Shown: positions 1 to 64,000 of the stretch, in pieces | How the letters are laid out: each line of letters starts with the position of its first letter | Numbering within the stretch: position 1 is the stretch's first letter | Assembly (NCBI GenBank): GCA_014332815.1 | Contig: JACSZT010000009.1 | Location: forward strand, 54,156 to 118,155 | Direction of reading: 5' to 3' | Origin: Weissella confusa | GTDB lineage: Bacteria; Bacillota; Bacilli; Lactobacillales; Lactobacillaceae | DNA length: 64,000 nt | The notes under the pieces: generated by a model | Databases searched by the model: none | The model's input: only the letters and a program-made list of their open reading frames with translations | Told to the model about the DNA's origin: nothing | Program-made: the position numbers and the translations under genes

Positions 1-888
1 CAACGCGATGTTTACAACGTTGTCTTGGAAGCACAATTGGCTGCCCAATCACAAGCAAAGCCTGGTATGACGGCCGGCGAGTTGGATGCGATTGCGAACA
101 AGGCTGGTGATGATGCGGATCGCGCATTCGAATTCGCCTTTGCGGCTTTACAAGAAGGCGTGTCTGAGCTTCAAGTGATGGCCAAGTTGGAATACGACTT
201 GAAGTCAATGGGCGTTGTGGGGATGTCATTTGAGACGTTGGTTCAATTCGGTGCGCACGCAGCTGAACCACACGGTGACACAGGTTCGACTTTGGCTTAT
301 CAAATGATTGCCAACTACATCAAGCAACACACGACGCATGCAACGAAGTGGGCCGTTGAAAAGGCGCAAATGACGTTGGACCGTGCTGCTTTGCTAGAAA
401 CGGCTGTACCAGAAGCTAAGTTTGTGGCTGATTTGTCACCATTGATGACTGAAATGCACTTGATCAAGACACCGGATGAAATTGCTAATATGGTGGATGT
501 CGCCTACTTCTCAGATTTTCATTCAATTGCCTATTTGACGGGCTTTGAATCTGACCCAATCGAACGTGTTTTGGCGTTGGTTGTCTTTCCACAAGACGAG
601 CCATTTATTTTTGCGCCAGCACTAGAAGTCGAGGCAGTAAAGGGCGCCGGTTGGACGCACCCTGTTTATGGTTACCAAGACCACGAGCAAAGGTTATTGT
701 ATCATGCTTTCATAAAATGTTTTCATGAGAACATTCAATATATCACAAGTTAATAGTTTAGCATAAATAATCGGTGTATTGCGTCATTTTCTGAAAATGA
801 GTGTACAATGATAGAAAAGTGAAACAAGAGGGGATTTCAGATGACTGAACAACTTACAAAAATCCAATCATGGTTGAACGACAATGAA
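1..888 (+). CDS. pepQ: Xaa-Pro dipeptidase / M24B peptidase, block-permuted; 3' part runs off the window start
   Basis: Catalytic-domain motif [16 protein letters not shown] sits near 230, while the N-terminal domain ([17 protein letters not shown], start about 841) lies downstream of it. Order is reversed in about 198-nt pieces. Confidence 0.55.
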
Positions 889-2076
889 TCTTGCTTAACG
901 TTGGCATTGCCATTGACAACACGTGAAACGGTCGCCATTGAGACTTTCGCTTCGCGGGCCACGTCATAAATCGTGATGGTCTGCTTTTCCATGCTGATGC
1001 TCCTTTATAAATCTCTCATACAGAATTTTTGTCGTTTTCATAACTTTTCAGTCATTAACCAAGTTGCATATCTGCAAACGGTTACAAAGTTAGCCAAGAT
1101 AATTTGGTAGTGGTACATAGCAGCAACGTCATCGATTCCACGAGCCAATTCGGCAAAGTAGTGGTCTGTGACGTCGGGAATCACGACACCAATTGTGGTC
1201 GTACGACGTGATGCCAAACCGCGGGCAACGGCGTTTGGACGGTAACCAAGTCGTTCGATAACGGCTTCAACCTTTTCTTTCGTTCCACTTGTGTAGTCAA
1301 TGTTTACAGAAGGTTGGTCAGTAACGTCATCAACTGAGCCTGCCAAAACAATAGGCACATCGGCCTTAGCAAATTCCTTGCGAATATCATCATCAATCAA
1401 GTTACCCATGAAGATGATACCGTCAACTTGCTTGCTCAATAGGTTTTCCAAAACTTGCAATTCCTTGGTGTCAGATTCATCTCCCATTTGGTAACCTGAT
1501 TGATAGTCGTAATCACCTTGAATAACAAGTGATTCGTCGTAATCGACACCAGCAACCGCCAAAGCGTTCATATAACCCTTAAGCTTGTACTCGCGGTTGA
1601 TGCCGTGATCCAAGCTTCCCGTTACAAAGGCGACGCGCTTGTGGCCGTTCTTCAACAACTTGGTCGTTGCTTCGCCGATACCAAGGTCGTAGATCGGTTG
1701 CGTAATTGAAGACATTTGTGGACGCGTCATAACAGCCAACTTTGAGTTGTTATTGGTAATCAATTCAAAGTCTTCAGGCATCTTAACGCCCGCATCAGTC
1801 ATGGCGTTCAACAAACCAGCAGCCATTTCGTCGTTAACAACAACAGCGGCTGTCGCCTTAGCGTCACGGACCATTTCAGAGACGAACAAGAAGGGCTTGT
1901 CAGAAGAAGCTTAATAATATGTAAAAAGAGGAACGACCATTAAGTCGTTCCTCTTTTTTTGTAGTCATTATTGCTTCGTTGAATCGCGGTCAACGTAACC
2001 GTGTGGCAAGATGATGTTCTTAACTGCCAATTCTTCACGGTTCATCAACTTCGTCAACATACGCATGGCAACGGCA
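889..2076 (-). CDS. ccpA: Catabolite control protein A (LacI family), block-permuted
   Basis: The - strand [32 protein letters not shown] starts at about 992 with an AAGGAG RBS, and the C-terminus [33 protein letters not shown] ends at about 1968. The N-terminus is at low and the C-terminus at high coordinates, as expected for a reversed-block - strand gene. Confidence 0.7.
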
Positions 2077-2670
2077 CAGTCAAAGGCAAGCGAAGTGAAG
2101 GATCAAGTTCGTGCCAAGGTTGCACCTGAACTTGAGGATGAAGACATTGATATCGTTTTGGATCCAACAGCACCTTCATTGTCAGAAGCATTTGAAGACT
2201 TGGAAGAACCAGTTGCGGTTGAAGAAGCAAAGCAAGTGACGGCTGAAGTTTTGGAACCCGAGGGTGGTTTGTCTTATCGCGCTGACGATTTCGTAGCCGA
2301 AAAGGGCTTGGACGTTAAGGTCGCTGACTTGAAGGCGCAAGCTGACGAGAAGACGGCAGGATTGCGTGCTAAGGCCGATGAACTTAAGGCTCAAGCCGAC
2401 GAAAAGACGGCCGGTTTGCGTGCTAAGGCTGATGACTTGAAGGCCCAAGCACAAGACTTGGCTGACCAAGCACTGTCTAAGGGAAAAGGATTTTTGGCAG
2501 GATTGTTGTTTAGTGGTGTAGCAGCTGCGGCTGGATACGCCTACTTCAAGAGCTTGTCACCAGCAGAACAAGAAAAGTTGAAGGCTAAGGTTGACGATAT
2601 CGTTGTTGATGTTCGCGACAAGGCAGTTGATTACACGTATGCAGCAACGGATGCGGTGGCATCTGTTCGT
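1879..2670 (+). CDS. YtxH-like general stress protein with an internal 18-aa tandem repeat, block-permuted
   Basis: N-terminal piece [23 protein letters not shown] (2473-2670); the repeat [18 protein letters not shown] occurs twice (2335-2460); the C-terminal end ...[12 protein letters not shown] lies at about 1919. Confidence 0.45.
1922..1960. terminator. Bidirectional rho-independent terminator between convergent ccpA and the ytxH-like gene
   Basis: AAAAAGAGGAACGACCATTAAGTCGTTCCTCTTTTTTT hairpin with a T-run, contained in one block. Confidence 0.55.
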
Positions 2671-3264
2671 TGGTGGCAGATTTGGGGACATCTGTGTCTG
2701 AGTTGAACGCGGCAACGCACAACTTGACGGGGAAGGTTAAGTCAACGGCTGCTTCGCGTGGGGCTGGTGTTGCATCAGCGTTCTCAGCGGTTAATGGATT
2801 CCGCAAGGCGCGCAAAGCACAATCATCAACGACAAAGTAATCAGATATAAACCAGGAGGGTATTAACCGGATTATCATTGCGGTGGCGGTATTGTTGTTG
2901 GTCTTGTTTATTGGGCTATTTTTGGTTCGATTGACACGAACTTTGGGGGTCATTACGCGTGATGTGGATATCATTGCACGTGAGGCAAACGACATTTTAG
3001 CTAACGCAAATACATTGTTGAATGATGTTAATGGCAAGGTAGCGACAATTGATCCAGCTTTCCAAGACGTTTGTAACGTTTTTATGCCGTTTACGACAGA
3101 GTCTATGAACAAAATATGAAACATTTTGATGAGAAGCGTAATTCATACATAATACAGCCGTATATCATTAAAATCACTTTCATTGAAAGGAAGCGCTTAA
3201 ACAGTTAGAATAAGACCTATAAAGGAACTTGGAGGAATAACTATGACAGCAGGTCAAATCGCGT
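2671..3264 (+). CDS. DUF948 (YtxG-like) membrane protein, block-permuted
   Basis: RBS GGAGGAATAACT plus ATG 3243 (MTAGQIA) joins in frame to IIIAVAVLLLVLFIGLFLVRL...IDPAFQDV (2869-3066), then to ...SAVNGFRKARKAQSSTTK* (about 2838). Confidence 0.45.
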
Positions 3265-4254
3265 GCAAAACCAAGAACGCTGTTCCGAAAAACTCGGCGA
3301 ACAAACGTACGACTAATGAGTGGTCCATAATTCCTCCAAATGTGAAAATAATTTTTAACTGTTTAACCAGAACAAATGTTTGCACATTTCTGTGCACAAA
3401 CGAACGCTTATCAATTTATCAAAAAAATGCGTTCAGTTCAATGTTTTTTGCGTGTTTTTAACTCAAAACCTCTGACCATGGGAAGTCACCAACAACGGCC
3501 AAGGCTAACGTAAAGGCAGGGTTGATTTGAGCTGAGAAAGCTCCGAAAGCCATAGCTGGGATAGCAACACCGGCTCCGTAACCAACGGCGATGTTCAACC
3601 AACCAGTTTCAGCTCCCTTTGTATTCTTCAACTCGGTATTGGCAACTGATCCATTACCCACCAAAGCGGCGAAGACCAAAACAAATGTTCCAACAAATTC
3701 GTTGATGAAACCGTTGAAACGTGAGTTAGCAGCGTCAGTCGTTGAGAATGGGGCGAAGACCGCATCAACGTTTGTCGTCAAATCAAAGTATGGCTTGTAG
3801 GCAGCGACAACCAAAAGTTGACCGAACATAGCACCCAAAATTTGAGCGATGATGTAAGGGGCAACCCATGCGTACTCCCAGTGTGATGATCCCTTAAACT
3901 TCAATGGCAACAAGGCGTGGACCAAACGTGGACCGAAGTCACGCGCAGGGTTCAAACCAGGACCGGTTGCACCACCCAATGATGTAACCAACGTTGCAAC
4001 AAGGACACCCAATGCCAAACCGGCAATACCCTTGTATTCAGCTGATGACGTAATTCGCAAGACACATTCAAGGTCTTCGAGGAACGTTTGAACGAGTTCG
4101 AAGCACTTGTTAACGAATTGGCCTAAAGTAAATTGCTATAAAAAAGACGCTGACTTCAAATTCTGAAGTCAGCGTCTTTTAATTTACTGTTCTTACTTAA
4201 ACAATGTCCACCACAAAGTTGAGGCGACGATACCACCGGCGATAGGTGCCAAAA
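3265..4254 (-). CDS. glpF: MIP-family channel (glycerol facilitator / aquaporin), block-permuted
   Basis: The - strand N-terminus MDHSLVVRLFAEFFGTAFLV (3328 to 3270) joins to LVGNGSVAN...NPAFTLA; NPARDFGPRL motif present; C-terminus ...PIAGGIVASTLWWTLFK* at about 4194. Confidence 0.55.
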
Positions 4255-6036
4255 TCCACACTTCTACTACAACTTCTACGTCTTCCAATATGCAACAGGC
4301 TTTGCAGCTGCAACCGCAATGGCAGACAAGATTTTGACTGAAGGTGAGCCGGCCGTGGCAGCTTACAAGGAATACTTGCAAGCTGGTTCATCAGCATTCC
4401 CAATTGATGTGATGAAGAAGGCTGGTTTGGATATGACCAAGCCAGACTACCTATACTTGGATGGCGTTAAGGGCACGGTCTTCCGTCAAACGCAATTTGC
4501 TGAGTTTGAGCAATGGATGCACGTAACGGATGCTGAGGGTACGCCTTTGACTGCTGACGTTTTGGATGAAGCGTATGGTGAGATGAACCGTCGTTACTAT
4601 GGTCCAGAATTGACGTTTGATGAAGAAATTGCCCACGAATGGGAGCGTATTAATAACTTGAGCACGCTGGTTCACGAAATGGGTCACTCAGTGCACTCAT
4701 ATTACACGCGTCAAAACCAACCATATCACTATGGTGACTACCCAATTTTCTTGGCTGAGATTGCCTCAACGACGAACGAGAACTTGTTGACGGATTACTT
4801 GTTGAAGACGGTTGATGACAAGAAGCTACGAGCTTACATCTTGAACCACATCGATTATGAATCAGCCAAGGCTGAAGCATTGCAGGCGTTGGCACCTTTG
4901 GGGGATGATTATCTTGATATCGTGAACAAGGCTTTTGATAGTCGTTGGATTGATGTCATTGAAAACAAGGGTAAGCGTTCAGGTGCTTATTCAGGTGGAT
5001 CATATGACACAAACCCATTCATTTTGTTGAACTGGGTGGATAACTTACACTACGACAATGCGCGTGAAGCTGCGTTGGCTGGTAACCATGTGCCTGAAGT
5101 TGTTTACGATACGTTGGTTGCGGAAGTGAACAAGGCATTGCCATTGCTCCACCGTTATGTTGGTTTGCGTAAGAAGTTGTTGGGCTTGGATGAGTTGCAC
5201 TCATACGATCTTTACACGCCAATTTTGGGTGAACCAGATTATGAGGAAGCCGTCGAAAATGAAAACGGTGAAATGGAAACATTGTCTAATGGTGTTTACT
5301 CACGTTTGTTGGAGTCAACGAAGCCTGAAATCCGCAAGAATGCTTTCCAAACGTTCTACAAGTCATACATGGCTTTGGAGAACACGTTTGCCTCATTGAT
5401 TGGTAACCATGTTAAGGGACAAAACTTCATGGCTGCTGCGCAATTGTCAGAAGAAGAGTTGTCAGAATTCTTTGCAGCTGAGCCTAAGCTACAAGACTAC
5501 AAGCACTACTTTGATAGCATTTTGACGCAACAAGGTCACGTCTTGCCAACTGAGCAAGAGGCACTTTTGGCAGCCGCGGGTGACGTCTTTGGGGCATCAC
5601 AACGTACATTTGGTGTGTTGGACAACGCTGATATTTCATTGTCTGCAACGGATTTGTACAACGCTTTGCAATACGGCCTAGGCTTGATGCAAGATTTGGA
5701 AAAGTTGTATGTATATGCCTCAATGAAGTCTGATCAAGACACGGCTAACACTTACTACCAAGGTTTGAACAACATGGCCGAGTCTTTGGCTGCTCGTGTG
5801 TCAGCTGCGATTGCCTTCTTTGACCCAGCCGTTTTGAGATAGAATAACAACTATAATAAACTTGAAATGAGGTTAGCTATTATGGCAAAAGAATTACCAT
5901 TGCGCGAAGAGTTGCCTGAGTCAATGACTTGGGATTTATCAACCATCTTTGCCTCTGACGAAGCGTGGGAAGATGCTTTCGCGGATTTGGAAGACCGTCT
6001 TGAATCAGCTGAGTTCTTTGCAGCAAGTGTGACGAA
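4057..6036 (+). CDS. pepF: Oligoendopeptidase F (M3B), block-permuted
   Basis: HEMGHSVHSYY zinc motif; start ATG about 5882 (MAKELPLREELPESMTWDL) with GAGG RBS; C-terminus rebuilt across 4452/4057 as ...KPDYLQDTFKVFEERLNEFEALVNELA* (stop about 4125). Confidence 0.7.
4140..4180. terminator. Bidirectional terminator between convergent glpF-like and pepF ends
   Basis: AAAAAAGACGCTGACTTCAAATTCTGAAGTCAGCGTCTTTT. Confidence 0.55.
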
Positions 6037-7026
6037 CTGCGACGCAACAAGATGATGCGATTGGGCTGTGGCTGGATCGATTGTTGGCGGAATGGGGCGC
6101 GACAAACGTGATTATGCAACGTGATGGCATGGTTTGGCTGAAGCGAGTAACAGAATGGTACCCGGATTATCAGCATAAATTGGCCGGGTTAGATTAGCAT
6201 CTCCGTTACCACGTGCAACTTCGGAACACAAAGTCGCAGAAACGCTTATATCGGTTAGGTAGAAGTTTGGTGGGCATGCCTTGGGTTTGCCATCGACTTA
6301 AGGCAATGCCAGGTGGTGCCCGCACAGCGCAATGGGAGTTATCATTGGCGGTTTTGCTGGCACTAGAGGATGGACCGCAGACTAAGACGCGATTACATGA
6401 GGTGTTGTCGAAGCAAGTCTGGTTTGAATTTGCGGCGAAGTTCGCTCGGATTCGTGGTGGACGGTTACAAGTGGCGTTTTGGCATGCTAAAGGGAACCGG
6501 GTTGAATGGCGGGAATGGTGGCGCCTTGATTGTCGCAATCGCGTAAACGCGCATGATGTGGGCGATGCGCATCGACAGCTATTGAAATTACAACAATTGG
6601 TGACGCAACGTTCGGAGGTGAGTCGTCGGTCTTGGCTACCGGAAATCAAGCAGCGACCAGACTTGGTGGTGACGTTTGACAATGTGAAAATTGCGGTTGA
6701 ATTTCAATGTGCACCAATAACAGCCCAGCGCGTATCAGAACGAACGCGTGGGTTTGAGTCGTTGGGGATGGATGTCGTTTGGGTGCTAGGCCCCACTTAT
6801 CAGCAGAAAAAGTTGCAACAAGCCACTTAGACGACGGTGTATGTTTGTCCTGGTTGTGAAGGTGAGGTTCAGGTAAAGCATGGGACAATTAATACACCCC
6901 ATTTTTCACACGTGACGTTGCGGGATTGCCAATCCCTGGCTGAGGGTGAATCGAGTGATCATTTATTGGGAAAACTACAACTAGCTGATTTTTTTGAAAG
7001 TATCGGTGGCACTGTTGAACTAGAAG

Positions 7027-12372
<5,346 letters not shown>

Positions 12373-12555: not shown

Positions 12556-12569
12556 AAACGCTTACATTG
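12556..12569. promoter_or_regulatory. Catabolite-responsive element (cre), consensus-perfect TGTAAACGCTTACA
   Basis: Matches TGWAANCGNTNWCA exactly. After de-permutation it lies about 50 nt upstream of the GH1-B start codon, that is, at the head of the cellobiose PTS / GH1 operon. Confidence 0.55.
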
Positions 12570-16926: not shown

Positions 16927-17534
16927 AAGAATATCGACCACGAGCCCAACGTGATTGATCACGGGAATCCATGATAACAAGATGCCAATGAACGCAATCG
17001 TTAAGGCTGCAATTTTTGTTTTGAAGTAAGGTTGTTTTCCTGTCATATAAGTTAAGTCTCCTTTTTTCAAAACTTTACCGTATTTATTAGTTGTTGACTG
17101 ACGCTAATTTTTTAAAACATGAATGCAATCAAATCCATCCGCCTGCTTATCGTTAATGTGCACAGACAAATGCTTGCTTTCGTGGCTGATTGAATTGCCA
17201 TAGTAGTTTTGGTTAATACTTACTAAGCCAATGCCTAATAAGCTCAATAATGCCGTAATAATTGGTAATGTCTTATCGCCATGTCGATCTAGCCATAGAG
17301 CGAATAGGGCGAATGCAAAAGCGGTTTTCGCAAAAGTCAGCGTCACAGTTTTTGTTTTATTCCCATTACGCCAAATTGCCACGCGTGTCGTTGGGGATGC
17401 GGACGTGTCATCTTCTTGTTCGTTTGGCTTGCCGAGCATGTCACGAATGTCCTGATAGGTGTCACCACCACGGCCAGTTTTGCTATCACCAACGGTCAGA
17501 TTATCAAAGTCGGCGCGAACCCTGTTATTGATAT

Positions 17535-17618
17535 GCCGCCGTGGCGGAACTGGCAGACGCGCACCGTTCAGGTCGGTGTGAGAGCAATCTCGTGCAGGTT
17601 CGATTCCTGTCGGCGGCA
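17535..17618 (+). tRNA. tRNA-Leu (anticodon CAG), intact within one block
   Basis: GCCGCCGTGGCGGAACTGGCAGACGCGCACCGTTCAGGTCGGTGTGAGAGCAATCTCGTGCAGGTTCGATTCCTGTCGGCGGCA has a 7-bp acceptor stem, D-loop, an anticodon loop TTCAGGT reading CAG, a long variable arm and GGTTCGATTCC T-loop; no encoded CCA. Confidence 0.85.
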
Positions 17619-17623
17619 TAAAG

Positions 17624-17660
17624 AAAAGGATGATCCTCATAATCGAGAATCATCCTTTTT
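17624..17660. terminator. Terminator hairpin downstream of tRNA-Leu
   Basis: AAAGGATGATCCTCATAATCGAGAATCATCCTTTTTT. Confidence 0.5.
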
Positions 17661-36330: not shown

Positions 36331-37518
36331 GTGCCGATGTGCTATTCGTTGATACAGCTGGTCGTTTGCAAAACAACGTGAACTTGATGCAAGAGTTGGC
36401 TAAGATGAAGCGTATTATCACACGTGAGTTGCCAAACGAGCCCCAAGAAGTTTTGTTGGCTTTGGATGCGACAACCGGACAGAACGCTTTGCAACAAGCC
36501 CGCTTGTTCAAGGATTCAACTGACGTGATGATTGGTAAGATGTCTGCCCGTTACAAGGCAGAAGGTAAGAAGGTATTGTTGGCTGCTGCGGACACGTTCC
36601 GTGCGGGTGCAACACAACAATTGCAAGCCTGGGGTGAGCGTAACGATATTCCAGTTGTTGCTGGTGAACCAAATGCTGATCCGGCCTCAGTTGTGTATGA
36701 CGGTGTGAAGACTGCTATTGAGACGAGATTGACGGATGAATTGCGTGATGAAGTGAAGCTACAAAATGCGAAGAGCAAGGCTGAAATTTCACGCGTGATT
36801 GTCGATAAGCTAGTTGAACATTATCGTTCACAAGGTGTGAATGAAGATGCGTCAATGCACTTTGCGCCTGAAGGACCAACGGTTATTTTGTTCGTTGGTG
36901 TGAATGGTGTTGGTAAGACGACGATTGTTGCAGAGTCTGAAGCACCAGTTGCTGAAGTAACTTCTGAAACCAACTTGGACGAGGGATTGACGAAGACGCG
37001 CAAGACTTGGTCAGAACGTTGGAACGCCTTTATGGCTAACTTCCGTTCAGTTGACGAAGATTTCTTCGAAGACTTGGAAGAGACGCTAATCGGGGCCGAC
37101 GTTGGTGCTGCCACAGCATTGCAAGTGTTGTACCCAAACACTTGGGAAAATGGGGAAGCACCAGCTGAGCCGACATCACTAGCGGCTGAAGTGTTGCAAC
37201 CAACTGCCGGTCAAGCGGTTGAGATTGTGTTGCCAACGCACGAGGAAGTTGCGCCAGTTGTGACGGAACCGGTAGCTGAAACGGAAACGGTTGAAACGGT
37301 TGCAGAACCTGAAGAGGCGGTTTACTCACCGTAAGGGTACGATGACGAATGCCGATGTGCTATATGGTGTTACTATGCAAGAACCGGGTGTCTCAACGAT
37401 GGTATCGGTTAACTTGCAAGAGCTAGATAATACGCTAGCAGAAAATTAATGGGGAAATGAACAATGGGATTGTTTGATTTTTTTAAGAAAAAGCCTGAAA
37501 CCCCAACTGTCAAAGTTG
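36133..37518 (+). CDS. ftsY: SRP receptor FtsY, block-permuted
   Basis: ATG about 37464 [26 protein letters not shown]; acidic A-domain ...[20 protein letters not shown]; NG domain [14 protein letters not shown]...; C-terminus ...[60 protein letters not shown] at about 36316. Confidence 0.7.
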
Positions 37519-40500
37519 TAGAAGTTCCAGCAAATGAGCCTGTTATCTGGTGGTGAAAAGGCGCTGACAGCGATTAGTTTGCTGTTTGCGATCCTTGAAG
37601 TACGTCCGGTACCGTTTGCGGTTTTGGATGAAACGGAAGCAGCGCTTGATGAAGCCAATGTTGACCGTTTTGCACGTTATTTGCATGAAGTTAATGATCG
37701 TACCCAATTTATTGTGTAAGATAATCTCCGTCAAACGATGTCAGAGATGGATGAAGAAGTTGAGACGCGCTTCAAGGAAACCTTTGATGCGATTGCAGCC
37801 CACTTCTCAGAAATCTTCGTGAAGATGTTTGGCGGTGGTCAAGCTAAGCTCGAACTCACTGACCCAGAACACTTGTTAACAACAGGGGTTGATATTAAGG
37901 CGCAACCGCCTGGCGCGTATGACACATCATTTGAGTTTGCTAAGGCTGAAATGTCTGACATGCCAATTGATAGCATCCGCACGCAATTGAAGTTGTTGAA
38001 GCAAGGTTTGGCTGAAATCGGTAATGTTAATTTGAACGCTATCGAAGAGTATGCTGAAGTTAAGGAGCGTTATGACTTCTTGACGCAACAACAAACTGAT
38101 TTGATTGATGCATAAGAGGCAACTACTGAATTGTTGTCTGACTTAACAGAAAAGTTGACTGACTTGAATGAACGCATTAACGTGGCGGAGGGGATGCTTG
38201 TCCAAGCGCAAGAAGCTCAAACCGATGCCATGTCGACGTTAAGCAAGTTAAGTGGTCGTCAAGGAGAATTGCGTGCGGCTATTCAAAACGGCGAACGTGC
38301 GTTGGAAGAATCTGAATTGCGTGCTGAATTGGCAACGGCGCAAGCAAATGTGCAAGCTGCCCAAGTCCGTCACGAAGATATTGTTGAACAAATTGAGGCT
38401 GAGCAAGCTCGCTTGAACAACTATCAACAACAAATGACAGATTTGACGTCTGATCAAAGTGACGTGCAACAACGTTTATCAGCTGAACTGGCGACAGCAA
38501 ATGCTGATTAAGAGAAGACGGCATTAAGTTATGAATTTAATGTTTCAAGCTCTGGCACGGCTGATCATGAAACAATGGTTGCCGAGAATGCTTCTGAAGT
38601 CACTAATTTGACGGAGAAGCAAGCTAAGTTGCAAGCACAATTAGCTGAATTGACCGACGAGCGCACGGAATTGTTGGCTCGCATTTCAGATGCTGATACT
38701 GAGTTGTCATTGACGGCGCAAGTTGCGACGTTGCATGATGAAACGGCAATTTTGGAACGCCAAGTACGTGAAATTGATGCTGAATTGCAAAATGTGACGG
38801 CATCATTTAATGAGCAACAAGCTAAGGTGCTAGCAGCGAATGAGCGTGCCCAACAAGCAACGGCCAAGTTGCAGGTTGCGGAAGAACGTTTGACCCAAGT
38901 GCAATCAGTAGTGAAAAACTTGTTGGGTACGACAGTGATTGCTAAGTCAATGGACGAAGCGGTACCAATGGCTCGCGCGTTGCAACAACGTGTTCGCATC
39001 GTGACCCTTGATGGTCAAGTGATGAATGCCGGTGGTTCAATGACCGGTGGTGCAAACCGTAACCAAGGTAACGGTTTGCTTTCACAACAAAACGAAGTGG
39101 AATTGATTGTGACTGATGAACAAGTTGGTAAGCAAGCTATTCGCTATTTGACAGAACACCGTTTGGGACGTGTGACGTTCTTGCCATTGTCAACGATTCG
39201 TTCACGCGAGTTGCAACCGGGTCAGATTCAGACTGCACAAAGTCAACCTGGCTTTATCGGAATTGCGGCTGACTTGGTGAAGACTGATGTTACGTACAAC
39301 CACCAACGATTGTCAACGCGTTTGCAGTCGTTGAGTCGCCTATCAGAAAACTACGATGGTTATTTCCAAGGTGTTCGTAACTTGATGAAGGCTAAGGATA
39401 ACTTCCAAGGCATTCACGGCGTTTTGGCTGAGCTGATTTCAGTTGAGACACCTCATCAAACGGCGATTGAAACAGCCCTTGGTGGTGCGTTGCAAAACCA
39501 ACAACGTAGTACATTGCTAGATGAGCAAATCGCCTCAGCAACGGCCAATGTAACGACTGCGCAGGCTGAAGTTGATGACGCAACGACCATGCTTGCAGAT
39601 GAACAAGCAGAATTTGTCCGTTTGCAAACGGCTGGTAAGGAGCTTGAAGCTAAGAGCCAGGCACAACGTCAAGAGTGGTTCAGCAAGATGGAAGAAGCTG
39701 CGGACGAATTGCGATTGCAGATTACTGAATTGACCGCGTCACACCCACGCCAACAAGAAGCAGCGGTTAGTGAGGAAATTGAACAAGTTCGTGCGAACTT
39801 GGTTGACGCGATGCAAGCGTTGACGACGGCGAAGAACCAACAGTCATATTTGGCTCAAGAACACGAGCGCAATGATGCTGAATCTGCGCGCCTGTCGCAA
39901 GATAAGTTGTTGGCCTTGACGACTGCTGTTGAGCAATTGAGTGGTGAACAAAAGTTGCAGGCCGAGCGTTCGGCCAATCGCTCAAATGCAACGCGTGAAT
40001 TGAAGGCGCAAATTGCGCAAGTTGAATCACGTTTGGCTGACTTGCAGGTGACGGAAGCGACGCGCCAAAAGAAGGTGGCTAGTCAAAAAGCACAGCAATT
40101 TGACAAGCTTGACCAATCACGTTTGGTATTGGAACTAACAGATTGGTACAACGAGCAAACTGAAATTGCCCGTGAGCTGGCTGGCGCTGAGCAAGCTAGT
40201 GATGAACAAGCGAAAGTTGTGAAGCAACAGACGGACTCGTTGACGGCGATGAAGGATGAGCGAACACAAACGGAAACAGCCCGTCAAGAATCTGAAGATC
40301 GACGAACGATTATCGAAGATGTTGCAGGTGTTTATAAATACAAGCAAAACAAAGATAAGGCTGAAAAAGAGCTAACTGGTGTGCAAGAAAATTTGAATCG
40401 TGTTCAAGACATTTTGTATGAATTGGAAGGACGCGTTGAGCCATTGGCTGAGCAATCAGCGAAGGCGCAAGATTATCTTGAAACCAAGGACCATTATTTG

Positions 40501-41082
40501 AATTCAGAATATTCTGAAATTCGAATCACCCGTACACTGTACCGTAATGGTGATTCTCGTTACCAAATTAACGGTACGACAGTACGCTTAAAGGATATCC
40601 ATGAGTTATTCATGGATTCTGGATTGGGACGTGAAAGTTTCTCAATCATTTCGCAGGGCCGTGTGGAAAGCATTTTTAGTGCTAAGCTTATGCCAGGAAT
40701 CACAGGGGTTGTTGGACCGAATGGTTCTGGTAAATCAAACATCATCGAATCGATTCGCTGGGTTATGGGTGAACAATCCGCCAAAGGATTGCGTGGTGAC
40801 AAAATGTCGGACGTCATCTTTGGTGGAACGGCACAACGCGCACCACTTAATCGTGCAGAAGTGTCAATTACGTTCGACAACACCAAACAAATCTTTACGG
40901 TTGAGGTATCGGTCAACGAGCAAGCTTTGGCGACTGGAGAGGGAAAGTCAACGAAGGAAGCTGAAAAGGCAGCCGCTCGTGCAGCTTATCAAACTTTGAC
41001 GAAGAACTAGGGAATCGGTATGAAATTAAAAACATTGGAGATTGGTGGATTTAAATCATTTGCCGATCGTACCAAGATTGAA
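37321..41082 (+). CDS. smc: Chromosome partition protein SMC, block-permuted across about 19 pieces
   Basis: ATG 41020 [21 protein letters not shown] joins across 41082/40687 to [45 protein letters not shown] (Walker A), then ...[30 protein letters not shown]...; hinge [10 protein letters not shown]...[12 protein letters not shown] at about 39250-39500; signature [40 protein letters not shown] at 37534-37716; C-terminus ...[39 protein letters not shown] at about 37447. Confidence 0.75.
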
Positions 41083-53160: not shown

Positions 53161-53556
53161 TATTGCGACAATCGTTGGGGGCGCAGCTACTGACAACTAT
53201 GGTGTTGTTGGTATGGCCAGCCAAAACCCACTACGCGATGGTGTTAACCAAATTTTGAATGGCGACAACTTTTCAAAGGGTGTCGTTGTTCGTCAACAAG
53301 ATAATGGCGTTGTTGTCGACGTCCACATCATTGTTGGGTACGGTATGAAAATTTCTGAGTTTAATAGATAAAGCTACCGTTTACGGTGGCTTTTTTCTTT
53401 ATACACGGTATTTGTTCAGGGTATAACGAAATTGGCTATAAGGACCTATTTCTACGCTACGATATGGTAGAATAGATATAGTTTTATACGGAGGTCATAC
53501 AAGATGGCAGTTAAGATTCAAACAACGCAAGGTGCAATTGAAATCGAAAACGAGGT
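52963..53556 (+). CDS. Asp23 / alkaline-shock family protein (YloU-like), block-permuted
   Basis: GGAGG RBS plus ATG about 53504, [19 protein letters not shown], joins to (A)[63 protein letters not shown], then to .[36 protein letters not shown] (about 53074). This is collinear with B. subtilis YloU. Confidence 0.6.
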
Positions 53557-53754
53557 CATATGGCAGTTGATGCAGTCAACGGAAAGCGTACTCGCTTCGG
53601 TAACCAACGTTCACACGCCCTTAACTCAAGCCGTCGTAGCTGGAAGCCAAACTTGCAAAAGGTGACGGTTAAGATTAACGGTTCAGCACCTAAGAAGGTG
53701 TACTTGTCAGCTCGTACTTTGAAGGCTGGTTTGAAGAACGGTTCAATTGAGCGT
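53359..53754 (+). CDS. rpmB: 50S ribosomal protein L28, block-permuted (start piece plus 2-codon tail), followed by terminator
   Basis: ATG 53560 [65 protein letters not shown] joins across 53754/53359 to V* ; terminator AAAGCTACCGTTTACGGTGGCTTTTTTC at 53372-53400. Confidence 0.6.
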
Positions 53755-54744
53755 GAGTCGGGGATGGTTGCGGTCATTGAAAGTCGGGACCTAACTGGTC
53801 AAACGGGCGATTAATTCGCAATTCCGACACAGTTTAATCGTGTAAAGTAAAAATACTTTACACAAAACCCTTGCACATCGAGTAAGGGTTTGATATTATT
53901 ATTCAAGTAAATAAAAGCACTGAATTAAAAGAGCTTAAGATTGGAGGGTAAACATCGTGTGTCGTTCTATTTACCTGGCACACACGCGATTACGCACACG
54001 CCGGGCATGAATTATTTAGGATTCATGCCACTAACACCGGTTACAGGCTTGACTTTGATCGATGAAAAGTACAAACTAACTAACTGGCAAGGCAATCCAT
54101 TCTCGTTCTCATCGAATGAATTTGACGGCGACGTTAATCATTTTTCATTTTTGAGTGCCAAGCCGGAAAAGGATGAGACGGACACGGAATTGCTGTTAGA
54201 TATCGTTGAACGAGAGCTACAACCTGACCTGATTGAAATATATGGGGCAACAGGTGGTCGTATCGATCAATTGCTATCTAATATTTGGATTTTTACGCAA
54301 CCGCGTTTTCAACAGCTAGCAACGAAAGTTATCCTGATTGATCGCACACGCCTACTAGTCGGTGGTCCTATCTCGGAATGGCCGGAAGAACTTGCAAAGG
54401 GGACGCTAGCCGGTCCATGGGCGGCTGCTGATCGTGGCGCACATCGTTTGTTAGCCTTAGGTCACGTGCCAGTCCTGACCGTTGGTGATTTTGACTCGAT
54501 GACACCAAGCGAACGTGAACAAACGTTGGCTCAGTTACCTCGAGTCGTTGGCTGAAATCAAGCGCGAAAAGGGCTATGACTACGACATCGAGATCGATGG
54601 TGGTGCAAACGACGAAACGACTAAGTTGGCCTACGAAGCTGGGGCAACGGTTGCGGTCGCTGGTTCATATGTCTTCGATAAGGTTGACCCAGCAGCTAAG
54701 ATTGCTCGTTTGAAGGAAGTGACGTCAGACTAATGGAACGCTTG
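53755..54744 (+). CDS. thiN: Thiamine pyrophosphokinase, block-permuted
   Basis: ATG about 54724 [11 protein letters not shown]...; N-terminal region ...[45 protein letters not shown] at about 54400-54540; C-terminus ...[26 protein letters not shown] at about 53814. Confidence 0.5.
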
Positions 54745-55338
54745 AGCAACGCCACACATTCACCGTGCTTTGCAACAAATCAAGAACCACGGTATCAAGG
54801 CTGAAGTTGTTATCAACCCTGGTACGTCAGTGGCTGCTATCGAACCTGTTTTGCACATGGTTGACCAAGTGTTGGTCATGACGGTTAACCCTGGTTTCGG
54901 TGGACAAAAGTTCTTGCCTGAAACGTTGGAGAAGATTGCTCGCGCAGGAGCAGAATTTGTTCACATCGATGTTATGGATGGTATGTTTGTACCATCAATT
55001 TCTTACGGTCCAGCCTGGGTTAAGGCCTTGCGCCCAGTAACTGACATGGTCTTGGACGTTCACTTGATGGTTGAACAACCAGAACGCTACATTGACGTTT
55101 TTGCTGAAGCTGGTTCAGATATTATCGGTGTGCACTACGAAGGTCAAATCATGCAATCACGTTACGACAACTACAAGTTGTTTTACGATTTGATTGAGGG
55201 TCGCCGCCCGGTTTATAATAAACACGATAAGAAGCACTAGAAAAATACGAGGTTTTTTGAGATGACGATTAAGGTAGCACCATCAATTTTGTCTGCAGAT
55301 TACATCAATTTGCAAAAGGACATCGAGTTGATTGAATC
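54547..55338 (+). CDS. rpe: Ribulose-phosphate 3-epimerase, block-permuted
   Basis: ATG 55262 [25 protein letters not shown] joins to ..[63 protein letters not shown], then ...[43 protein letters not shown]; C-terminus ...[49 protein letters not shown] at about 54730. Confidence 0.7.
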
Positions 55339-56328
55339 GCAGGTTGGCTTGATTAAGCTGTTTGGCGGTTTTGTGGCCGATACCCCAGGATTCTCAGCGT
55401 TTGAAGTATTCGACATGGAAGCACGTGATTTGACACGTTACTTCCGCGAATTTAACGAATTATCACCAAACTGCCGCTTCCGAGGATGTGTTCACTTGAA
55501 CGAACCCGGTTGCGCAGTGAAGGAAGCGTTGGCCGCACAAGTTATTTTGCCAGAAAAGGCCTTTGACGAGCCAAGTTTGACGGCTGTTAAAGACATGCTG
55601 AGCGATAAGTTGTCAGTTGTTATGGGACAAACTGGTGCGGGTAAAAGTACGTTGCTTAACCACATCGCACCGGAATTGGACCTGGCAACAGGTGAAGTTT
55701 CACAAGCGTTGAGTCGTGGACGTCACACGACCCGAGCTAACGTTGATCAAGCAATTGTTGTGACGGCGGTTAAGATGCCAGATTGGTCAAGCAATTTGCT
55801 TGATCGTCAATTGGTCGCACTTGAAGAAAAGGATATTGAACCGGTTATTTATTTCACGAAGACCGACTTGCTTAATGAGCAAGAAATGGCTGAAATGGTG
55901 ACGGTTGCCGATGGTTATCGCCAAGCTGGATAACAATTAGCGTTGGCAGGCTTTTATGACGTGTTAACTGATGACGGAGAATTATTCCGCACACGCGCAC
56001 GTGGTAATTTCCGCAAGCGTGACATGAAGCCTTTGGTTGGCGACTGGGTAACCTTTAGTGCCGATAGCCAATCTGAAGGATATATTTTGGATATTGATGA
56101 GCGTGATAACAGTTTGGTACGCCCACCGGTACATCATCGTCTTCATCAAGTTCGTCATCTTCATCAAGTAGCAATTCAAGTTCGTCGAGCGCAAACAGCA
56201 CGGCAACTGAATCTTCTACTCATCAATAAGATTAGATAAAGCAGAGTGGGAATGTCGGAGGTTTTAGACCAACACCTGCTGTGACAAAAATAAATAGGAG
56301 AGTAAATGGCAAATTATCATGGACAAAT
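55141..56328 (+). CDS. rsgA: Ribosome small-subunit biogenesis GTPase RsgA, block-permuted
   Basis: AGGAGAG RBS plus ATG about 56306, MANYHGQI, joins across 56328/55933 to [41 protein letters not shown] (OB fold); ...[12 protein letters not shown]...; ...[40 protein letters not shown]; zinc finger [20 protein letters not shown] joins to [32 protein letters not shown] (about 55240). One junction (55932/55537) reads TAA under strict 198-nt periodicity and is unresolved. Confidence 0.6.
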
Positions 56329-58902: not shown

Positions 58903-60288
58903 GTGGGTATCTTGGAAGCAGCAGCACCTAAGCTAAAGGCTGGCGGACGTATGGTTTACGGTACTTGCACGATTTTGCGTTCAGAAAACGAAGATGTCGT
59001 TGACATGTTCTTGGCTGAGCACCCAGATTTCGAGTTGGTACCAACGTACACGGCCTACGATTTAGATGCTCGTGACGATCGTGGTATGGTCCACATGTTC
59101 ACGGAACGTTTGCACGTGGCTGACCGTATCAATGCACGTACGCTAGACGCTCGCAAGGTTGATGAAGCGTTTGCGGACGGTCAATTTGACCGTATTTTGG
59201 TTGACGCGCCTTGTTCAGGCTTTGGCCTATTGCGTCGTAAGCCTGAAATTCGATACGATAAGAGTATTGAAGATAGCTTGAGCTTGCAAAAGATTCAACT
59301 GGTTACGTTGCAAGACGAGTCTGCCATGTTGATGGCACCTAGTTTGGACATTCAACCAGATGATCAAGTTTTGGATGCGGCCGCGGCCCCTGGTGGTAAG
59401 ACGACACAAATTGCAACGTACTTGAACGCTGCAGAAGGTGGTCATGTTGAAGCGCTTGATATCCACGATCACAAGGTTGGCTTGATTAATCAAAACAAGG
59501 CATCACGTATTGCGATGGCAATTAACGATGCTCCTGCCCAATCAGCTCGTGTGAACTTGGCAGTCACAACGGTTGCGGATGCAACGAAGATTTTGGAAGA
59601 AGAAGGCTTTACAGTCACACCTTCAAAGGTGACGCCAGATGCCTTGCTACTTGCCGGTGGTCACGTTGCCAGTTCACAAGCTTTCAAGGATGGTTTCGAC
59701 GAAGCCATTAATATTGCGAAGCGTCGCGGTCACGATGGGGTTCGTAAGTTTGTCACAGGTGTTCTCCACGCGATTGACCGTGAAGGTGTGCGTTCATTTG
59801 ATGAAATTACAGACAAGGTTGAACGTTTGTCTGTTGAAGCGTCATTGCCAACTTGGTTGATTAACCAATTGACGGAAGAGTTGGGTTGGGAAAAAGCTGA
59901 ATTGGATGAACGTGATGTTCACTTGATGACAACGATGGTTTACGGTGTTATTCAACGTCGCATGACTTTGGAGTACTGGTTGAAGCCATTCGTGAAGAAG
60001 CCGGAAAAGTTGGACCCATGGGTGCGCGAATTGTTGTATGTCTCTCTTTTCCAAATGAAGTTCTTGGATAAGGTGCCAAATCACGCTATCGAAAAATGGA
60101 CGTAACGGCGTACCTAAATGGACACGCTAAGTTCGAAGAAGGAGACATGGTGATTACTGATGAGCAAGGGAAGTAGTAATAAAGTCGCCGAATGGGAGTT
60201 GCACAATGCACGTGCCATGGCCATTCGAACGCTTGAGAAGATTCGTAATGGTGCCTATTCAAACTTGCAACTGAACAATACGGTTAAG
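58705..60288 (+). CDS. rsmB: 16S rRNA (cytosine967-C5)-methyltransferase RsmB/Sun, block-permuted
   Basis: ATG 60160, overlapping the fmt stop, [43 protein letters not shown]; NusB-like ...[19 protein letters not shown]...NHAI joins to .[31 protein letters not shown]; MTase [21 protein letters not shown]; C-terminus ...[13 protein letters not shown] at about 58760. Confidence 0.65.
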
Positions 60289-61278
60289 GGCGTGGCTTGT
60301 ACCCATTCCCAATCGCGCACACGACGATTAATGGCGTACGCACAAAGATTCAACGCACGCACTTGGTTGATGAAACAACAACGGCACCAGCCGGAACGGT
60401 TGTTAAGAAGGGCAAGCACGATTTGTGGCTAGCTGCCGGTGATGGCAACATCATTGCAATCGATGAATTGCAACCAGCTGGTAAGCACGATAACACCGGC
60501 ACGTTGTTTGATAAGTTGAGTCTATTGGGACGTGACTTGTTGATGGAAACGTTGCCTAAGTTGATTGCTGGGGATGTACAACCTGAGCCTCAAGCTGAAG
60601 AAGATGTAACCTTCTCACCAAACATTTCACCAGAACAAGAAATTTTGGACTTCAGCCGTTCAGCACGTGAGATTCACAACCATGTAACGAAACTATTGGA
60701 ATCAGCACAAATTGCGGCCATCAATGTGCACGCATCATTGCTACCAAAGTATCGTGGTGGGGCACCTATTCACTATGCTGTACTTAACGGCGATGCTGAG
60801 ACTGGGGTCTCAATCATGTACATGGTGAAGAAGATGGACGCTGGTGATGTGATTTCACGTGCCACGTTGCCTATCTTGGATGGTGCTGCTGTAATGACGC
60901 AACCAGATCGTCCAGTTGGCCGCAAGCGTGTATTGACGCCAACGCCAGTAAAGGAAGCTGCCGTTGCGGCTGGCATTAAGGTGTTGCAACCTGAAAAGCT
61001 TTCTGGTTCAGATGAAATGGCTGAAGTCATTGCCATGCAACCGGATTTGTTGATTACAGCAGCTTATGGTCAATTCTTGCACTACAAAAACAAGGGGTTA
61101 CGTTAACGATTGATCGTGACCCAGTAAACTTCATTTAGAAAATAAACGAGGCGTTTTTATGCGCCTCATACATATAAAAAGGAGACTGGCAACATGACAA
61201 CTAAGATTGTATTTATGGGAACCCCAAACTTTTCTGTGCCAATTTTGAATGCATTGATTGCAAATGATGATTACGAGG
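60091..61278 (+). CDS. fmt: Methionyl-tRNA formyltransferase, block-permuted
   Basis: AAAGGAGA RBS plus ATG 61194, [29 protein letters not shown], joins to ..[36 protein letters not shown]...ITAAYGQFL, then ..[45 protein letters not shown]; C-terminus ...[33 protein letters not shown] at about 60173. Confidence 0.7.
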
Positions 61279-63654
61279 TGATGAGGCAGCTAAGGTTGCT
61301 TATCAGACGGCCAACTGGCTAAAGCGTCACTTGGCATCGGATTCAGTTTTACTCGGTCCTTCGACAGGTGCAATCGCACGCTTGAAGAATAAGTATTATT
61401 ACCGAATGGTGATTAAATTTAAGCATGATGATGGGTTAGAGGAAGCGCTAACGGAACTTGTTTCAGCCGGTCAACGTGTGGCTGGTCGTGCCGGACGTGC
61501 TGATAAGGAAGGTGAAGTGGTGATTCAAACGTTTAATCCCGATCACTATGCCATTCAGTTAGCCAAGACACAGGACTATGAATCATTCTACAAGCAAGAA
61601 ATGAATCTACGTCATACTTGGCAGTATGCGCCGTACTTCTATACAGTGCAGATTAAGATTGCCCACGAGCGTCATACGCGTCGCAAGGGTGCAACGGACA
61701 AGATGTTGAATGATTTTGGTGAGAAGAAGGCGGATATCTTATTGGGTACCCAAATGATTGCCAAGGGTCTGGATTTTCCAGATGTTACATTGGTCGGCGT
61801 ACTAAATGCTGATACCACACTGGGCTTGCCAGATTATCGTGCCTCAGAGCGTACTTTCCAACTACTGACGCATGATTTGGCCTTGACGGTGCACAAGGAC
61901 ACGGGCCGTTTGGAATGCCACTACTGTGGTTATAGCGAACCAATCCCAACGACTTGTGCCAACTGTGGTTCTGACCGTATTCGTCCTTATGGTACGGGAA
62001 CTCAAAAGGTTGAAGAAGAATTGCAACGTATTATGCCTGATGCACGCATCATCCGCATGGACGTTGATACATTGCCAAAGGCAGAAGTTGTGGACATGCG
62101 TGAAGCAATGAAGGCCGGCGGGGATGATATTTTCTCACCACAATTGTTAACGCAGCTCCGTGATCGCATGGACAAGCAAGAGCAAAGTGTCTTGATGTTG
62201 AATCGACGCGGTTATGCCAACTTTATGATGTGTCGTAATTGTGGTTATACGCCACGCTGTGTGAACTGCGATGAAGAGCACGAAGCAACTTATAAGCAAG
62301 AAGAAAACCCACGTTACCACGCCCGCGATGTCGCACTTTGGCGTGCCGAGTATCACAATGCAACAGTTGTCTTGGGCTCAGCCACACCGTCGTTAGAAAG
62401 TCGTGCGCGTGCCCAACGTGGTGTTTATACGTTGCTGACGTTGACGGAACGTGCGTTGCACAATCCAGAAATCACGTTGACGCCACAAATGGTACGTCGT
62501 GTGAAGGGACGCTTCGGTGATAATGTCGCAGTCATGCACTCAGGACTATCGGATGGTGAACGCTACGATGAATGGCGTCGCGTTGAGCGCCACGAAGTAC
62601 AGGTGGTTGTGGGCGCACGTTCAGCAATATTTGCACCGTTGGAGAACATCGGACTTATCGTCATACCAGTTGCTGCAACTGAAGCATTGACGTTAAACCC
62701 CGAGCAAGAAGTGGCTTATGAGGCCATTACGGCTAGCTTGAATAAAGCTGAGAATGACACCTTTTTGCTAGAAGGGATTACCGGGTCAGGTAAGACGGAG
62801 GTCTACTTGCAAAGCATTGCGCATACATTGGCCAACGGTAAGACGGCTTTGATGTTAGTGCCGCGTCGTCAGTTACGCAAGACGGCGGTTAAGCAAGCAC
62901 GGTTGTTGACGTTCTTGATGACGGCACCGCGCGATTTTATGCCAATTAAGACTGTTATAGATGAACAACATCTTGACTATCCAACGATTAAAAAAGCTGA
63001 GGAACAGGGCTGGATTACGCGTGACGAAATCGAAGAATACCGTTTGCCACGTTTGAGCAGCGCTGTAGCCTTGTTGTTTGCTGATCGTTCTGAAATTCCG
63101 TTTGATGAACATGAGATTGAACCAGCGCTATTGCCTAAGTTGCAACGTTTGCAACGACAAGGTATTTTGCAAGTTGGCTATGTCGTAGATAATCGCGCAA
63201 CGGCTAAAACAGTGTTGGCAATGAAGCCTACACAAGACGCAGATTTCTATGACAATGAGAAGTTGAAAGACATTGATAGCGTTGTGGAACTAACGCCAGT
63301 CTTAAACGATGAATTATTGCAACTGGGCGGTTGGCTAGCGGAAACGAATTTTTCATTCCGTATTAGCGTGTTGCAAACGATGCTACCTAATGTGATGCGC
63401 GCCAAGTATTCGAAGACGCTTCAGTTGGTTGAACCGGATGCAATTACGGACGATGCGAGGAAAAAATACATGTATGCACAAGTGATTGTCGATGTACCGG
63501 CAATGCAGACAAACCAGCCATATACCTACCGTATTCCGGCTGAGTTAGCAGATATTGTCGTTGATGGTATGCGCGTTGTTGTACCGTTTGGCCGTGGGAA
63601 TCGCTTGATTCAGGGGTTCGTCGTCGGCCTCGTTGATGAGGCTGAAGATGCTGA
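61081..63654 (+). CDS. priA: Primosomal protein N' (PriA helicase), block-permuted
   Basis: Promoter-like TTGCCT-17-TAAAAT at about 63791-63813 (upstream in de-permuted order); ATG about 63469 [62 protein letters not shown] joins to ...[36 protein letters not shown]; Walker [17 protein letters not shown]; Zn-binding CHYCGY...CANCGS / CRNCGY..CVNC; C-terminus ...[24 protein letters not shown] at about 61138; attenuator hairpin GAGGCGTTTTTATGCGCCTC at 61148-61170 before fmt. Confidence 0.7.
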
Positions 63655-63852
63655 TAAGTTAACAATGACGCGATTTAAAAATCAACGTGAATCATGATGA
63701 AAATTGGTCAGGGTGGCAACACCTTGGCCTTTTTTGTTGGCGTAAAACCAAAGGAAATATAAAGCGTATCGGGCGTCATTAGGGGGATTTGCCTAAGTTT
63801 GGTAAAATAGAGTGAGCAAATTTTAGACTTATTGAATATATAGACCAGATGA

Positions 63853-64000
63853 CAATCCAGGCTTGCAAGGTGAAATCGAATTACTATTGCGTCGTCGATA
63901 TGAATTGAACATTACATATATTGATGACCCGACGGTGGCGGATGCTATTATTGCAGACCACTTAATGCTATTGGCACCGTACAAGCGTCTGTTCGTTTGG
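63853..64000 (+). CDS. Partial C-terminal coding piece of the gene upstream of priA in de-permuted order (possibly CoaBC-like), continuing beyond the window
   Basis: Open frame ...DNPGLQGEIELLLRRRYELNITYIDDPTVADAIIADHLMLLAPYKRLFVW with no stop before the window end; family assignment tentative. Confidence 0.2.

Follow-up and report, generated by a model that had tools for sequence, protein, structure and literature searches.

The window, by which we mean the whole 64,000-nt stretch of DNA that was analysed, draws its content from a chromosomal region with an Mga-like regulator gene and priA at one end, smc-ftsY-ylxM-ffh inside, and ccpA and pepQ at the other end. In the raw window, this content is cut into chunks of 197 nt, and none of the genes longer than one chunk is intact. 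The raw ORFs matched Pfam profiles only in 3 to 5 stretches of approximately 66 aa each, with the domain order reversed. After the order of the chunks had been restored, all 50-odd genes matched family profiles from end to end. PriA, GlpK, GH1, PepF, and TelA each gave one end-to-end Pfam stretch, and Fmt, RsmB, Stp1, PknB, RsgA, S16, RimM, TrmD, L19, a GltP-like protein, MIP, CcpA, and MscL each gave one end-to-end NCBIfam stretch, this second set covering stretches that have no DNA reference. Over its full length (100%), the restored PriA shared 99% identity with P0001. All ten genes that a first-pass annotation had expected from the restored sequence (PriA, Fmt, RsmB, PknB, SMC, RecG, Ffh, GlpK, PepF, and OhyA) were recovered. 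A tRNA-Leu(CAG) is intact and on the strand it has in the real genome, because it lies entirely inside one chunk; Rfam at gathering thresholds gave zero matches in the window, but also zero in two real loci. The coordinates of all features are summarized in Table 1.

Table 1. Features of the 64,000-nt window. Coordinates are those of the raw window; k is a running integer, and restored coordinates are given in the remarks.
Feature	Coordinates	Strand	Remarks
Window as a whole	1..64000	.	322 complete 197-nt chunks, 323 single bases, and two truncated end chunks
Complete chunks	98+198k to 294+198k, k = 0-321		Each reverse-complemented in place relative to one W. confusa chromosome strand
First complete 197-nt chunk, example unit	98..294	+	197 is the modal HSP length in raw-window comparisons
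First of 323 single bases (97+198k, k = 0-322), unflipped	97..97	.	On the coding strand, complementary to the base in the genome
Truncated chunk, low-coordinate end	1..96	+	Final 96 nt of its 197-nt chunk; codes for a portion of an M24 Xaa-Pro peptidase (PepQ-like)
Truncated chunk, high-coordinate end	63854..64000	+	Initial 147 nt of its 197-nt chunk; lies at the 3' end of an Mga-family regulator gene that precedes priA
tRNA-Leu(CAG)	17534..17619	+	Wholly within chunk 88 (17522-17718)
smc footprint	37321..41082	+	19 chunks, grid cells 188-206; raw protein runs backwards in ~66-aa units
Single base making a false SMC stop under the 198-nt join	38509..38509	.	SMC intact under the corrected rule
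Stretch checked base by base against L002	33164..55140	+	Restored 8727-30761; rsgA end to ffh and beyond
Stretch checked against L033	4453..25440	+	Restored 38469-59575; glpK to pepF
Stretch checked against L111	56131..64000	+	Restored 1-7791; Mga-like regulator 3' end, priA, fmt, rsmB, stp, pknB

The first-pass annotation, made from the letters alone, had described a 198-nt grid with same-strand pieces in reversed order and a preserved reading frame. This pattern is present across the whole window, and the junctions that had been named as examples all lie on the grid and within the named genes (16/16). The period never varies and takes no account of where genes, codons, or operons begin and end. 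Compared with one W. confusa chromosome strand, every chunk has been reverse-complemented at its own place; compared with the opposite strand, it is the order of the chunks that runs backwards. The earlier wording of a reversed block order is therefore equivalent, though in-place reverse-complementing on the opposite strand is the more economical description. Since 198 is a multiple of three, reading frames continue over the junctions and long chimeric ORFs arise. ORF length was dropped as a discriminator, because with the frame preserved the raw sequence, the sequence restored by the earlier recipe, and the corrected sequence were all rich in long ORFs, and homology was needed instead. The sequence had also been said to look like a codon-usage-preserving scramble or a processing artefact. 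An intent to preserve codon usage cannot be demonstrated from the sequence, as the continuity of the frame follows from the divisibility of the period.

For the comparison with real DNA, three references were used, namely the type strain W. confusa NBRC 106469 (L002), the metagenome contig ERZ772879 NODE-7 (L033), and the Logan contig ERR9295478_615 (L111). Against the type strain, the raw window gave 110 HSPs of at least 150 nt, exactly one for each of the consecutive grid cells 168-277. All of them were plus/plus, the longest measured 214 nt, the subject position stepped by -198 in 106/109 steps, and query and subject starts were correlated with r = -1.00000. The same reversed pattern of one HSP per cell appeared against the metagenome contig (cells 22-127) and, at the high-coordinate end, against the Logan contig. 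In all raw-window comparisons with real W. confusa DNA, the modal HSP length was 197. No collinear same-order alignment of the raw window was found against any of the three references, only reversed HSPs of approximately 197 nt, and the same-strand, anti-diagonal order that had been foreseen for such an alignment was thus observed.

When the window was cut on the grid (at 96+198k) and its pieces were put in the opposite order, as had been proposed, these fragments merged. The 110 anti-diagonal HSPs against the type strain became a single HSP of 22,035 nt (identity given below after the single-base correction), the metagenome contig gave a single ungapped HSP of 21,107 nt with 18 mismatches, and the Logan contig a single HSP of 7,841 alignment columns. 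The identities of 98.99%, 99.915%, and 97.7% over 22.0, 21.1, and 7.8 kb, respectively, identify the sequence content as that of W. confusa, which narrows the earlier expectation of a Weissella or Leuconostoc source down to the species. The three HSPs jointly account for 257 junctions and approximately 80% of the window's sequence, while the remaining 20% or so (restored 7792-8726, 30762-38468, and 59576-64000) was compared at the protein level only. The ungapped 21,107-nt alignment, with its 107 junctions, shows that the pieces tile the genome exactly, with zero loss, gain, overlap, or duplication at the junctions. Three independent natural W. confusa sequences are collinear with the restored order and not with the window.

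The proposed recipe of 198-nt pieces cut after 96+198k was nearly right, its grid and reversal standing as described, but its piece size was not. When the pieces were joined in this way, 87/111 junction bases disagreed with the type strain and SMC was truncated. A scan of the grid offset placed the minimum number of mismatches at 96/97, and each further nucleotide of shift added approximately 70-90. Offset 97 was rejected as an improvement, being as imperfect as offset 96 (308 mismatches each), and this equality exposed a separate single base. Each unit consists of a 197-nt piece and a lone base, located at 97+198k, and not of 198 nt in one piece. Uncomplemented neighbors from x(k-6) to x(k+6), placed in slot k, agreed with the reference at chance level only (16-30/111) and were dismissed, with the exception of x(k+1), which equaled the reference base in 0/111 cases. 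This complete disagreement revealed the rule, as the complement of x(k+1) always fits. With the single bases complemented, mismatches fell to 0/111 against the type strain, 0/107 against the metagenome contig, and 2/39 against the Logan contig; the single base is accordingly the complement of the genomic base at 255/257 tested junctions, and both exceptions belong to the 97.7%-identity reference.

The 198-nt join leaves 11 false in-frame stops within genes, and alternative junction rules gave 11-21 stops inside genes called on the restored sequence; the count of zero under the corrected rule is partly circular, as the genes were called on that same corrected sequence. SMC reaches 750 aa with the 198-nt join versus 1185-1188 aa with the corrected rule. 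The 197+1 structure looks more like an off-by-one error than like a clean design.

At both ends, the window stops inside a chunk, and these truncated chunks leave small gaps in the restored sequence. At the high-coordinate end, the remaining 50 nt of the chunk lie outside the window, and the alignment to the Logan contig has one gap only, of exactly 50 nt and exactly after restored position 147. Pfam found zero families on the 49-aa fragment at this end, which was settled by the DNA reference. At the low-coordinate end, approximately 101 nt of genome appear to be absent, in genome order, between the truncated chunk and base 97, as judged from frame and profile positions: the reading frame is displaced by 2 at the join, where the match to the Peptidase_M24 profile also skips ~35 residues, from position ~66-70 to 106. 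The two gaps predicted for the ends are thus supported, the 50 nt at the DNA level and the 101 nt at the protein level only. The window is accordingly a slice of something longer that had undergone the same operation.

Could the arrangement exist in a living cell? Formally, the pattern equals a series of in-place inversions as made by invertases, and hundreds of such inversions, be they shufflon-like or Hin/Gin-like, or a ciliate-style scrambling could be invoked. Multi-inversion shufflons are present on IncI plasmids (PMC5430464), and scrambled and inverted segments occur in Oxytricha germline DNA (PMC9797194, PMC5940158). However, we consider a real biological rearrangement extremely improbable. 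It would have to produce 322 equal segments of 197 nt on an exact 198-nt stride, blind to gene and codon boundaries, and the segment ends carry none of the expected signatures. Terminal inverted repeats at the chunk borders had a mean length of 0.35 nt, equal to shifted-grid controls; no motif was found at the junctions, where the maximum information was 0.03 bit; pointer-like overlaps of at least 4 nt occurred at 3/320 junctions, which is chance level; and no eliminated spacers separate the segments, the tiling being ungapped. No recombinase, integrase, or transposase family was found among the restored genes scanned with Pfam and NCBIfam, which comprised all but a few small ORFs below 100 aa. 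Moreover, every essential gene, among them smc, ffh, ftsY, priA, and the ribosomal protein genes, would be lost, and no cell could live with such an arrangement; the three natural references follow the restored order and lack the junctions of the window. The first-pass view, in which the pattern has no known biological origin and was made by a deliberate scramble or by faulty processing, agrees with every test, including the exact period, the lossless tiling, and the zero junction signatures.

A fault in sequencing or assembly, with short reads or ~198-nt tiles joined in the wrong orientation, would suit a piece size near common read or tile lengths, and orientation errors are typical in read handling. 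Yet real reads overlap and start at random positions, while here 322 consecutive, gap-free, non-overlapping tiles of identical length stand in exact order with one untouched base between them, which is not assembler output. We hold this origin to be highly improbable, if slightly less so than a biological one. Since the pattern requires a finished genome as input, it would in any case amount to processing after assembly and thereby fall under the preferred reading instead of forming a separate one. A physically synthesized construct that was subsequently sequenced, for instance a scrambled gene-synthesis control, would account for the regular and deliberate-looking design, and synthetic rearrangement systems do exist. 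Against it, there are no scars of synthesis or assembly, no adaptor or recombination sites, and zero loxPsym matches in the window with up to 3 mismatches; a construct of more than 64 kb of non-functional DNA would be needed, as the window ends inside chunks, and nothing sets such a construct apart from an in-silico product. It is the least probable of the alternatives. Taken as one question, the presence of the arrangement in physical DNA, either through an unknown natural inversion on a strict 198-bp ruler or as a very large synthetic scrambled construct, is as improbable as the biological rearrangement.

The reading we prefer, with a probability of about 0.99, is that the window was derived computationally from an ordinary 64-kb section of the W. 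confusa chromosome and has no biology of its own. Among the tests run, no data argued against it. Direct observation covers the grid with its tiling, the rule for the complemented bases, the truncation of the end chunks, and the species of origin, and the operation itself was presumably performed in software. In such a procedure, the non-coding strand with respect to most of these genes would be taken and traversed with a stride of 198 nt; at each step, 197 nt would be reverse-complemented in place and the one base between chunks left alone, and a 64,000-nt window would be cut from the longer product. On the plus strand of the window, the chunks read as genuine coding-strand text in reversed genomic order, with the untouched single bases seen as complements. 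The purpose may have been a deliberate decoy or control, or the pattern may stem from an off-by-one bug introduced while the sequence was chunked or its strands were handled; the sequence cannot decide between the two.

The arrangement is thus a synthetic or artefactual feature and not a biological one, and it is without biological importance. The window is best handled as a control, a decoy, or corrupted input, and other readings taken from its raw form, including long ORFs, odd domain orders, and apparent gene fusions, should be viewed accordingly. Inverting the transformation exactly gives back an ordinary stretch of W. confusa DNA. Should the transformation have been unintended, an off-by-one error in chunk-wise strand handling is what the 197+1 structure suggests, and if this is true, other windows of the same source may be affected.

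Among known systems, the shufflon of R64 (Rci/sfx) comprises a few unequal segments bordered by sfx repeats within one pilV gene and adjoins the rci recombinase gene (PMC5430464, PMC11852207). The segments of the window are likewise formally inverted in place, but they are 322 in number, equal in size, free of repeats and recombinase, and spread across 64 kb of housekeeping genes. In the scrambled germline genes of Oxytricha, segments of variable size are joined by pointer repeats with elimination of spacers, in a eukaryotic germline nucleus (PMC9797194, PMC5940158, PMC2394655). The window shares with them gene segments whose order or orientation departs from that in the functional gene, whereas its source is bacterial, its segment size constant, and pointers and spacers are missing. 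Unlike in SCRaMbLE-type synthetic rearrangements, its borders carry no loxPsym sites. The native W. confusa chromosome (priA-fmt-rsmB-stp-pknB ... smc-ftsY-ylxM-ffh ... ccpA-pepQ) is matched in that every 197-nt chunk is genuine, and the restored window has a gene content and order typical of Lactobacillales; the raw window differs from it by the chunks flipped in place and the one base per 198 left unflipped. In-silico block shuffles and reversals serve as composition-preserving negative controls. As in these, the block size is fixed, the grid blind to biology, and the tiling exact, the window being a slice of a larger transformed whole; codon usage and local composition are retained, as are k-mers no longer than a block. 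In contrast to random block shuffles, its order is strictly reversed, which equals the in-place reverse complement. The constant period, exact tiling, deterministic leftover base, and cut ends of a computational fixed-block transformation are all present.

The window is a chunk-flipped derivative of a normal Weissella confusa chromosomal region, built from units of 197 + 1 nt. The raw sequence holds many long ORFs on the + strand, the products of which run backwards, one unit of about 66 aa after another, while each unit reads forwards, just as the first-pass annotation had described. When the sequence was cut after positions 96+198k and the order of the pieces was reversed, PriA, SMC, RecG, PepF, Ffh, GlpK, and OhyA, among others, became recognisable as proteins with their N- and C-termini in place, and the likewise predicted Fmt, RsmB, and PknB were recovered as well. 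ORF length was rejected as a discriminator: because 198 is a multiple of three, frames continue either way and long ORFs occur in both the raw and the restored sequence. Homology was therefore chosen as the test.

The restored RecG (residues 1–678) showed 99% identity to the type strain W. confusa NBRC 106469 (L002, 22 kb). Against this locus, the raw window broke into 116 HSPs, most often 197 nt long and arranged anti-diagonally, whereas the restored sequence gave one HSP of 22,035 nt. The raw HSPs of at least 150 nt fell exactly one into each consecutive 198-nt grid cell from 168 to 277, all plus/plus, with a correlation of query and subject starts of r = −1.00000 and a subject step of −198. 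A metagenome scan with the restored TelA as query led to the contig ERZ772879 NODE-7 (L033), on which raw grid cells 22–127 repeated this one-per-cell anti-diagonal pattern and the restored sequence matched as one ungapped HSP of 21,107 nt. The expectation that a relative's genome would break the raw window into short same-strand HSPs in anti-diagonal order was thus borne out by both references, at about 197 nt. Furthermore, the restored PriA was 99% identical to protein P0001 over 100% of its length, and the contig encoding the latter (Logan ERR9295478_615, L111) matched restored positions 1–7791 as one HSP. Together, the three references cover approximately 80% of the window and 257 junctions. 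The identities differed markedly between them (99.9% for L033, 99.0% for L002, and 97.7% for L111); judged by 99.9% versus 99.0%, the source strain is much closer to ERZ772879 NODE-7 than to NBRC 106469.

The exact unit differs from the block reversal of about 198 nt proposed initially, of which the order reversal, the strand, and the grid stand. The HSPs were mostly 197 nt long, not 198 nt, and under the simple join L002 disagreed at 87 of 111 junction bases. In an offset scan against L002, 96 and 97 tied at 308 mismatches, with the other offsets being worse, and therefore the base at 97+198k suits neither adjoining piece. Shifted slot assignments of these single bases gave only chance-level matches (16–30 of 111), and the uncomplemented window-adjacent single matched L002 in 0 of 111 cases, which indicates a deterministic non-identity mapping; the base compositions fit a complement rule. 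The sequence was consequently rebuilt from alternating pieces of 197 and 1 nt, all reversed in order, with the singles complemented. No single was then mismatched against L002 (0/111; total mismatches reduced from 308 to 221, 98.99% identity) or L033 (0/107; 18 mismatches in 21,107 nt), and 2 of 39 were mismatched against L111, a reference that is itself only 97.7% identical. Under the simple join, a spurious stop at window position 38509 ended SMC at 750 aa; under the corrected rule, its frame stayed open for 1188 codons, and the called protein has 1185 aa. Within the genes called on the corrected version, other junction rules introduced 11–21 in-frame stops, a test which is partly circular, as the gene calls themselves derive from that version. 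All 16 junctions listed by the first-pass annotation fall on the grid and within the genes it names, and the only correction concerns the joining base: the one following 7224, for example, comes from position 7027, complemented, rather than from 6829.

If the window was cut from a longer transformed sequence, partial chunks are expected at both ends, and with them gaps of 50 nt and 101 nt at fixed points of the restored sequence. The alignment to L111 had only one gap, which measured exactly 50 nt and lay directly after restored position 147. At the low-coordinate join, a PepQ-like reading frame shifts by 2, and the Peptidase_M24 profile skips from about 66–70 to 106 (approximately 35 residues), which fits 101 nt. 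In the related strain, genes for a WxL-domain surface protein and an Mga-family regulator lie upstream of priA; the high-coordinate end of the window holds only the 3′ end of an Mga-like gene. Coordinates are collected in the table.

Coordinates of window ends and individual features
Feature	Window	Other coordinates	Remarks
High-coordinate end piece	63854–64000		147 of 197 nt present
Low-coordinate end piece	1–96		96 of 197 nt present
WxL and Mga genes upstream of priA		L111 925–3269	
3′ end of Mga-like gene	63655–64000		
tRNA-Leu(CAG)	17534–17619	L033 7827–7912	+ strand; ARAGORN, both sequences
AraC/GH43/MFS block	~45279–49264	restored 14665–18600	between ohyA and recG
PknB/Stk1 poly-serine tail	56134–56172	restored ~7680–7770	continues in next chunk rightwards
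GH1/PTS group	8611–12372	restored 51678–55362	
LysM + NlpC/P60 hydrolase	22669–24054	restored 39969–41288	

For stretches lacking a DNA reference, restored Fmt, RsmB, Stp1, PknB, RsgA, S16, RimM, TrmD, L19, a GltP-like transporter, a MIP channel, CcpA, and MscL each gave one near end-to-end NCBIfam match. With Pfam, restored PriA, GlpK, a GH1 enzyme, PepF, and TelA were each matched in one stretch, whereas the raw ORFs over them gave three to five stretches of about 66 aa in reversed domain order; the raw priA ORF carries PriA_C at residues 6–49 and the 3′ DNA-binding domain at 717–777. The other restored genes serve ordinary housekeeping and sugar use (including rpe, thiN, asp23, fakA, ohyA, plsX, rnc, ftsY, ylxM, spx, mecA, coiA, and genes for an AraC regulator, a GH43 enzyme, an MFS transporter, a deoxynucleoside kinase, a HAD hydrolase, PTS IIA/IIB/IIC, and a DUF948 protein). 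The tRNA-Leu(CAG) lies intact within one chunk, on the same strand as in L033. An Rfam scan of the window, L002, and L033 at gathering thresholds gave no match, tRNA family included, an outcome that probably reflects the tool or its thresholds and not biology.

Some restored genes have features of their own. The block of genes for the AraC regulator, a GH43 beta-xylosidase, and the MFS transporter resembles a variable island; when aligned to Weissella fermenti, the sequence fragments and restored positions ~14.7–18.6 kb are skipped, while collinearity with W. confusa L002 is retained. After its PASTA domains, the PknB/Stk1 kinase carries an unusual poly-serine tail at the C-terminus (about 20 Ser, then N, then more Ser). 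On either side of the cellobiose-type PTS IIB and IIA genes lies a GH1 6-phospho-beta-glucosidase gene, and IIC follows downstream; the two GH1 genes are paralogous and give rise to extra internal HSPs of 518 and 342 nt. In the LysM plus NlpC/P60 cell-wall hydrolase, a long linker of low complexity is rich in Ser/Glu/Ala/Pro/Val and contains SEAPV-like repeat units.

With regard to its origin, the pattern could be produced by taking the opposite strand as starting text and reverse-complementing each 197-mer in place at a stride of 198 nt, while the single bases in between would be left alone. This operation is algebraically identical to reversing all pieces and complementing the singles, and is the more economical description, since the singles need no special rule. 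It resembles a strand flip applied chunk by chunk, in which chunk length and stride are off by one.

A search for biological junction signatures found no terminal inverted repeats at the segment ends (mean 0.35 nt, as in the shifted-grid controls), information of no more than 0.03 bit at junction positions, pointer-like overlaps of at least 4 nt at chance level (3/320), no loxPsym site in the window, and no recombinase or transposase family among the scanned genes. These results support the earlier interpretation as an artefact or decoy, with the block pattern itself being confirmed; the transformation may have been deliberate or a bug, and the arrangement is without biological novelty. The GC content of about 45% and the uniformly positive GC skew are the values of the source strand, and the arrangement would destroy all essential genes of the region. 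Without border repeats, variable segment size, or dedicated machinery, the window differs from shufflons, a natural inversion system with all three (PMC5430464, PMC11852207), and it differs equally from ciliate scrambled genes, in which pointers accompany variable segment sizes and dedicated machinery (PMC9797194, PMC5940158).
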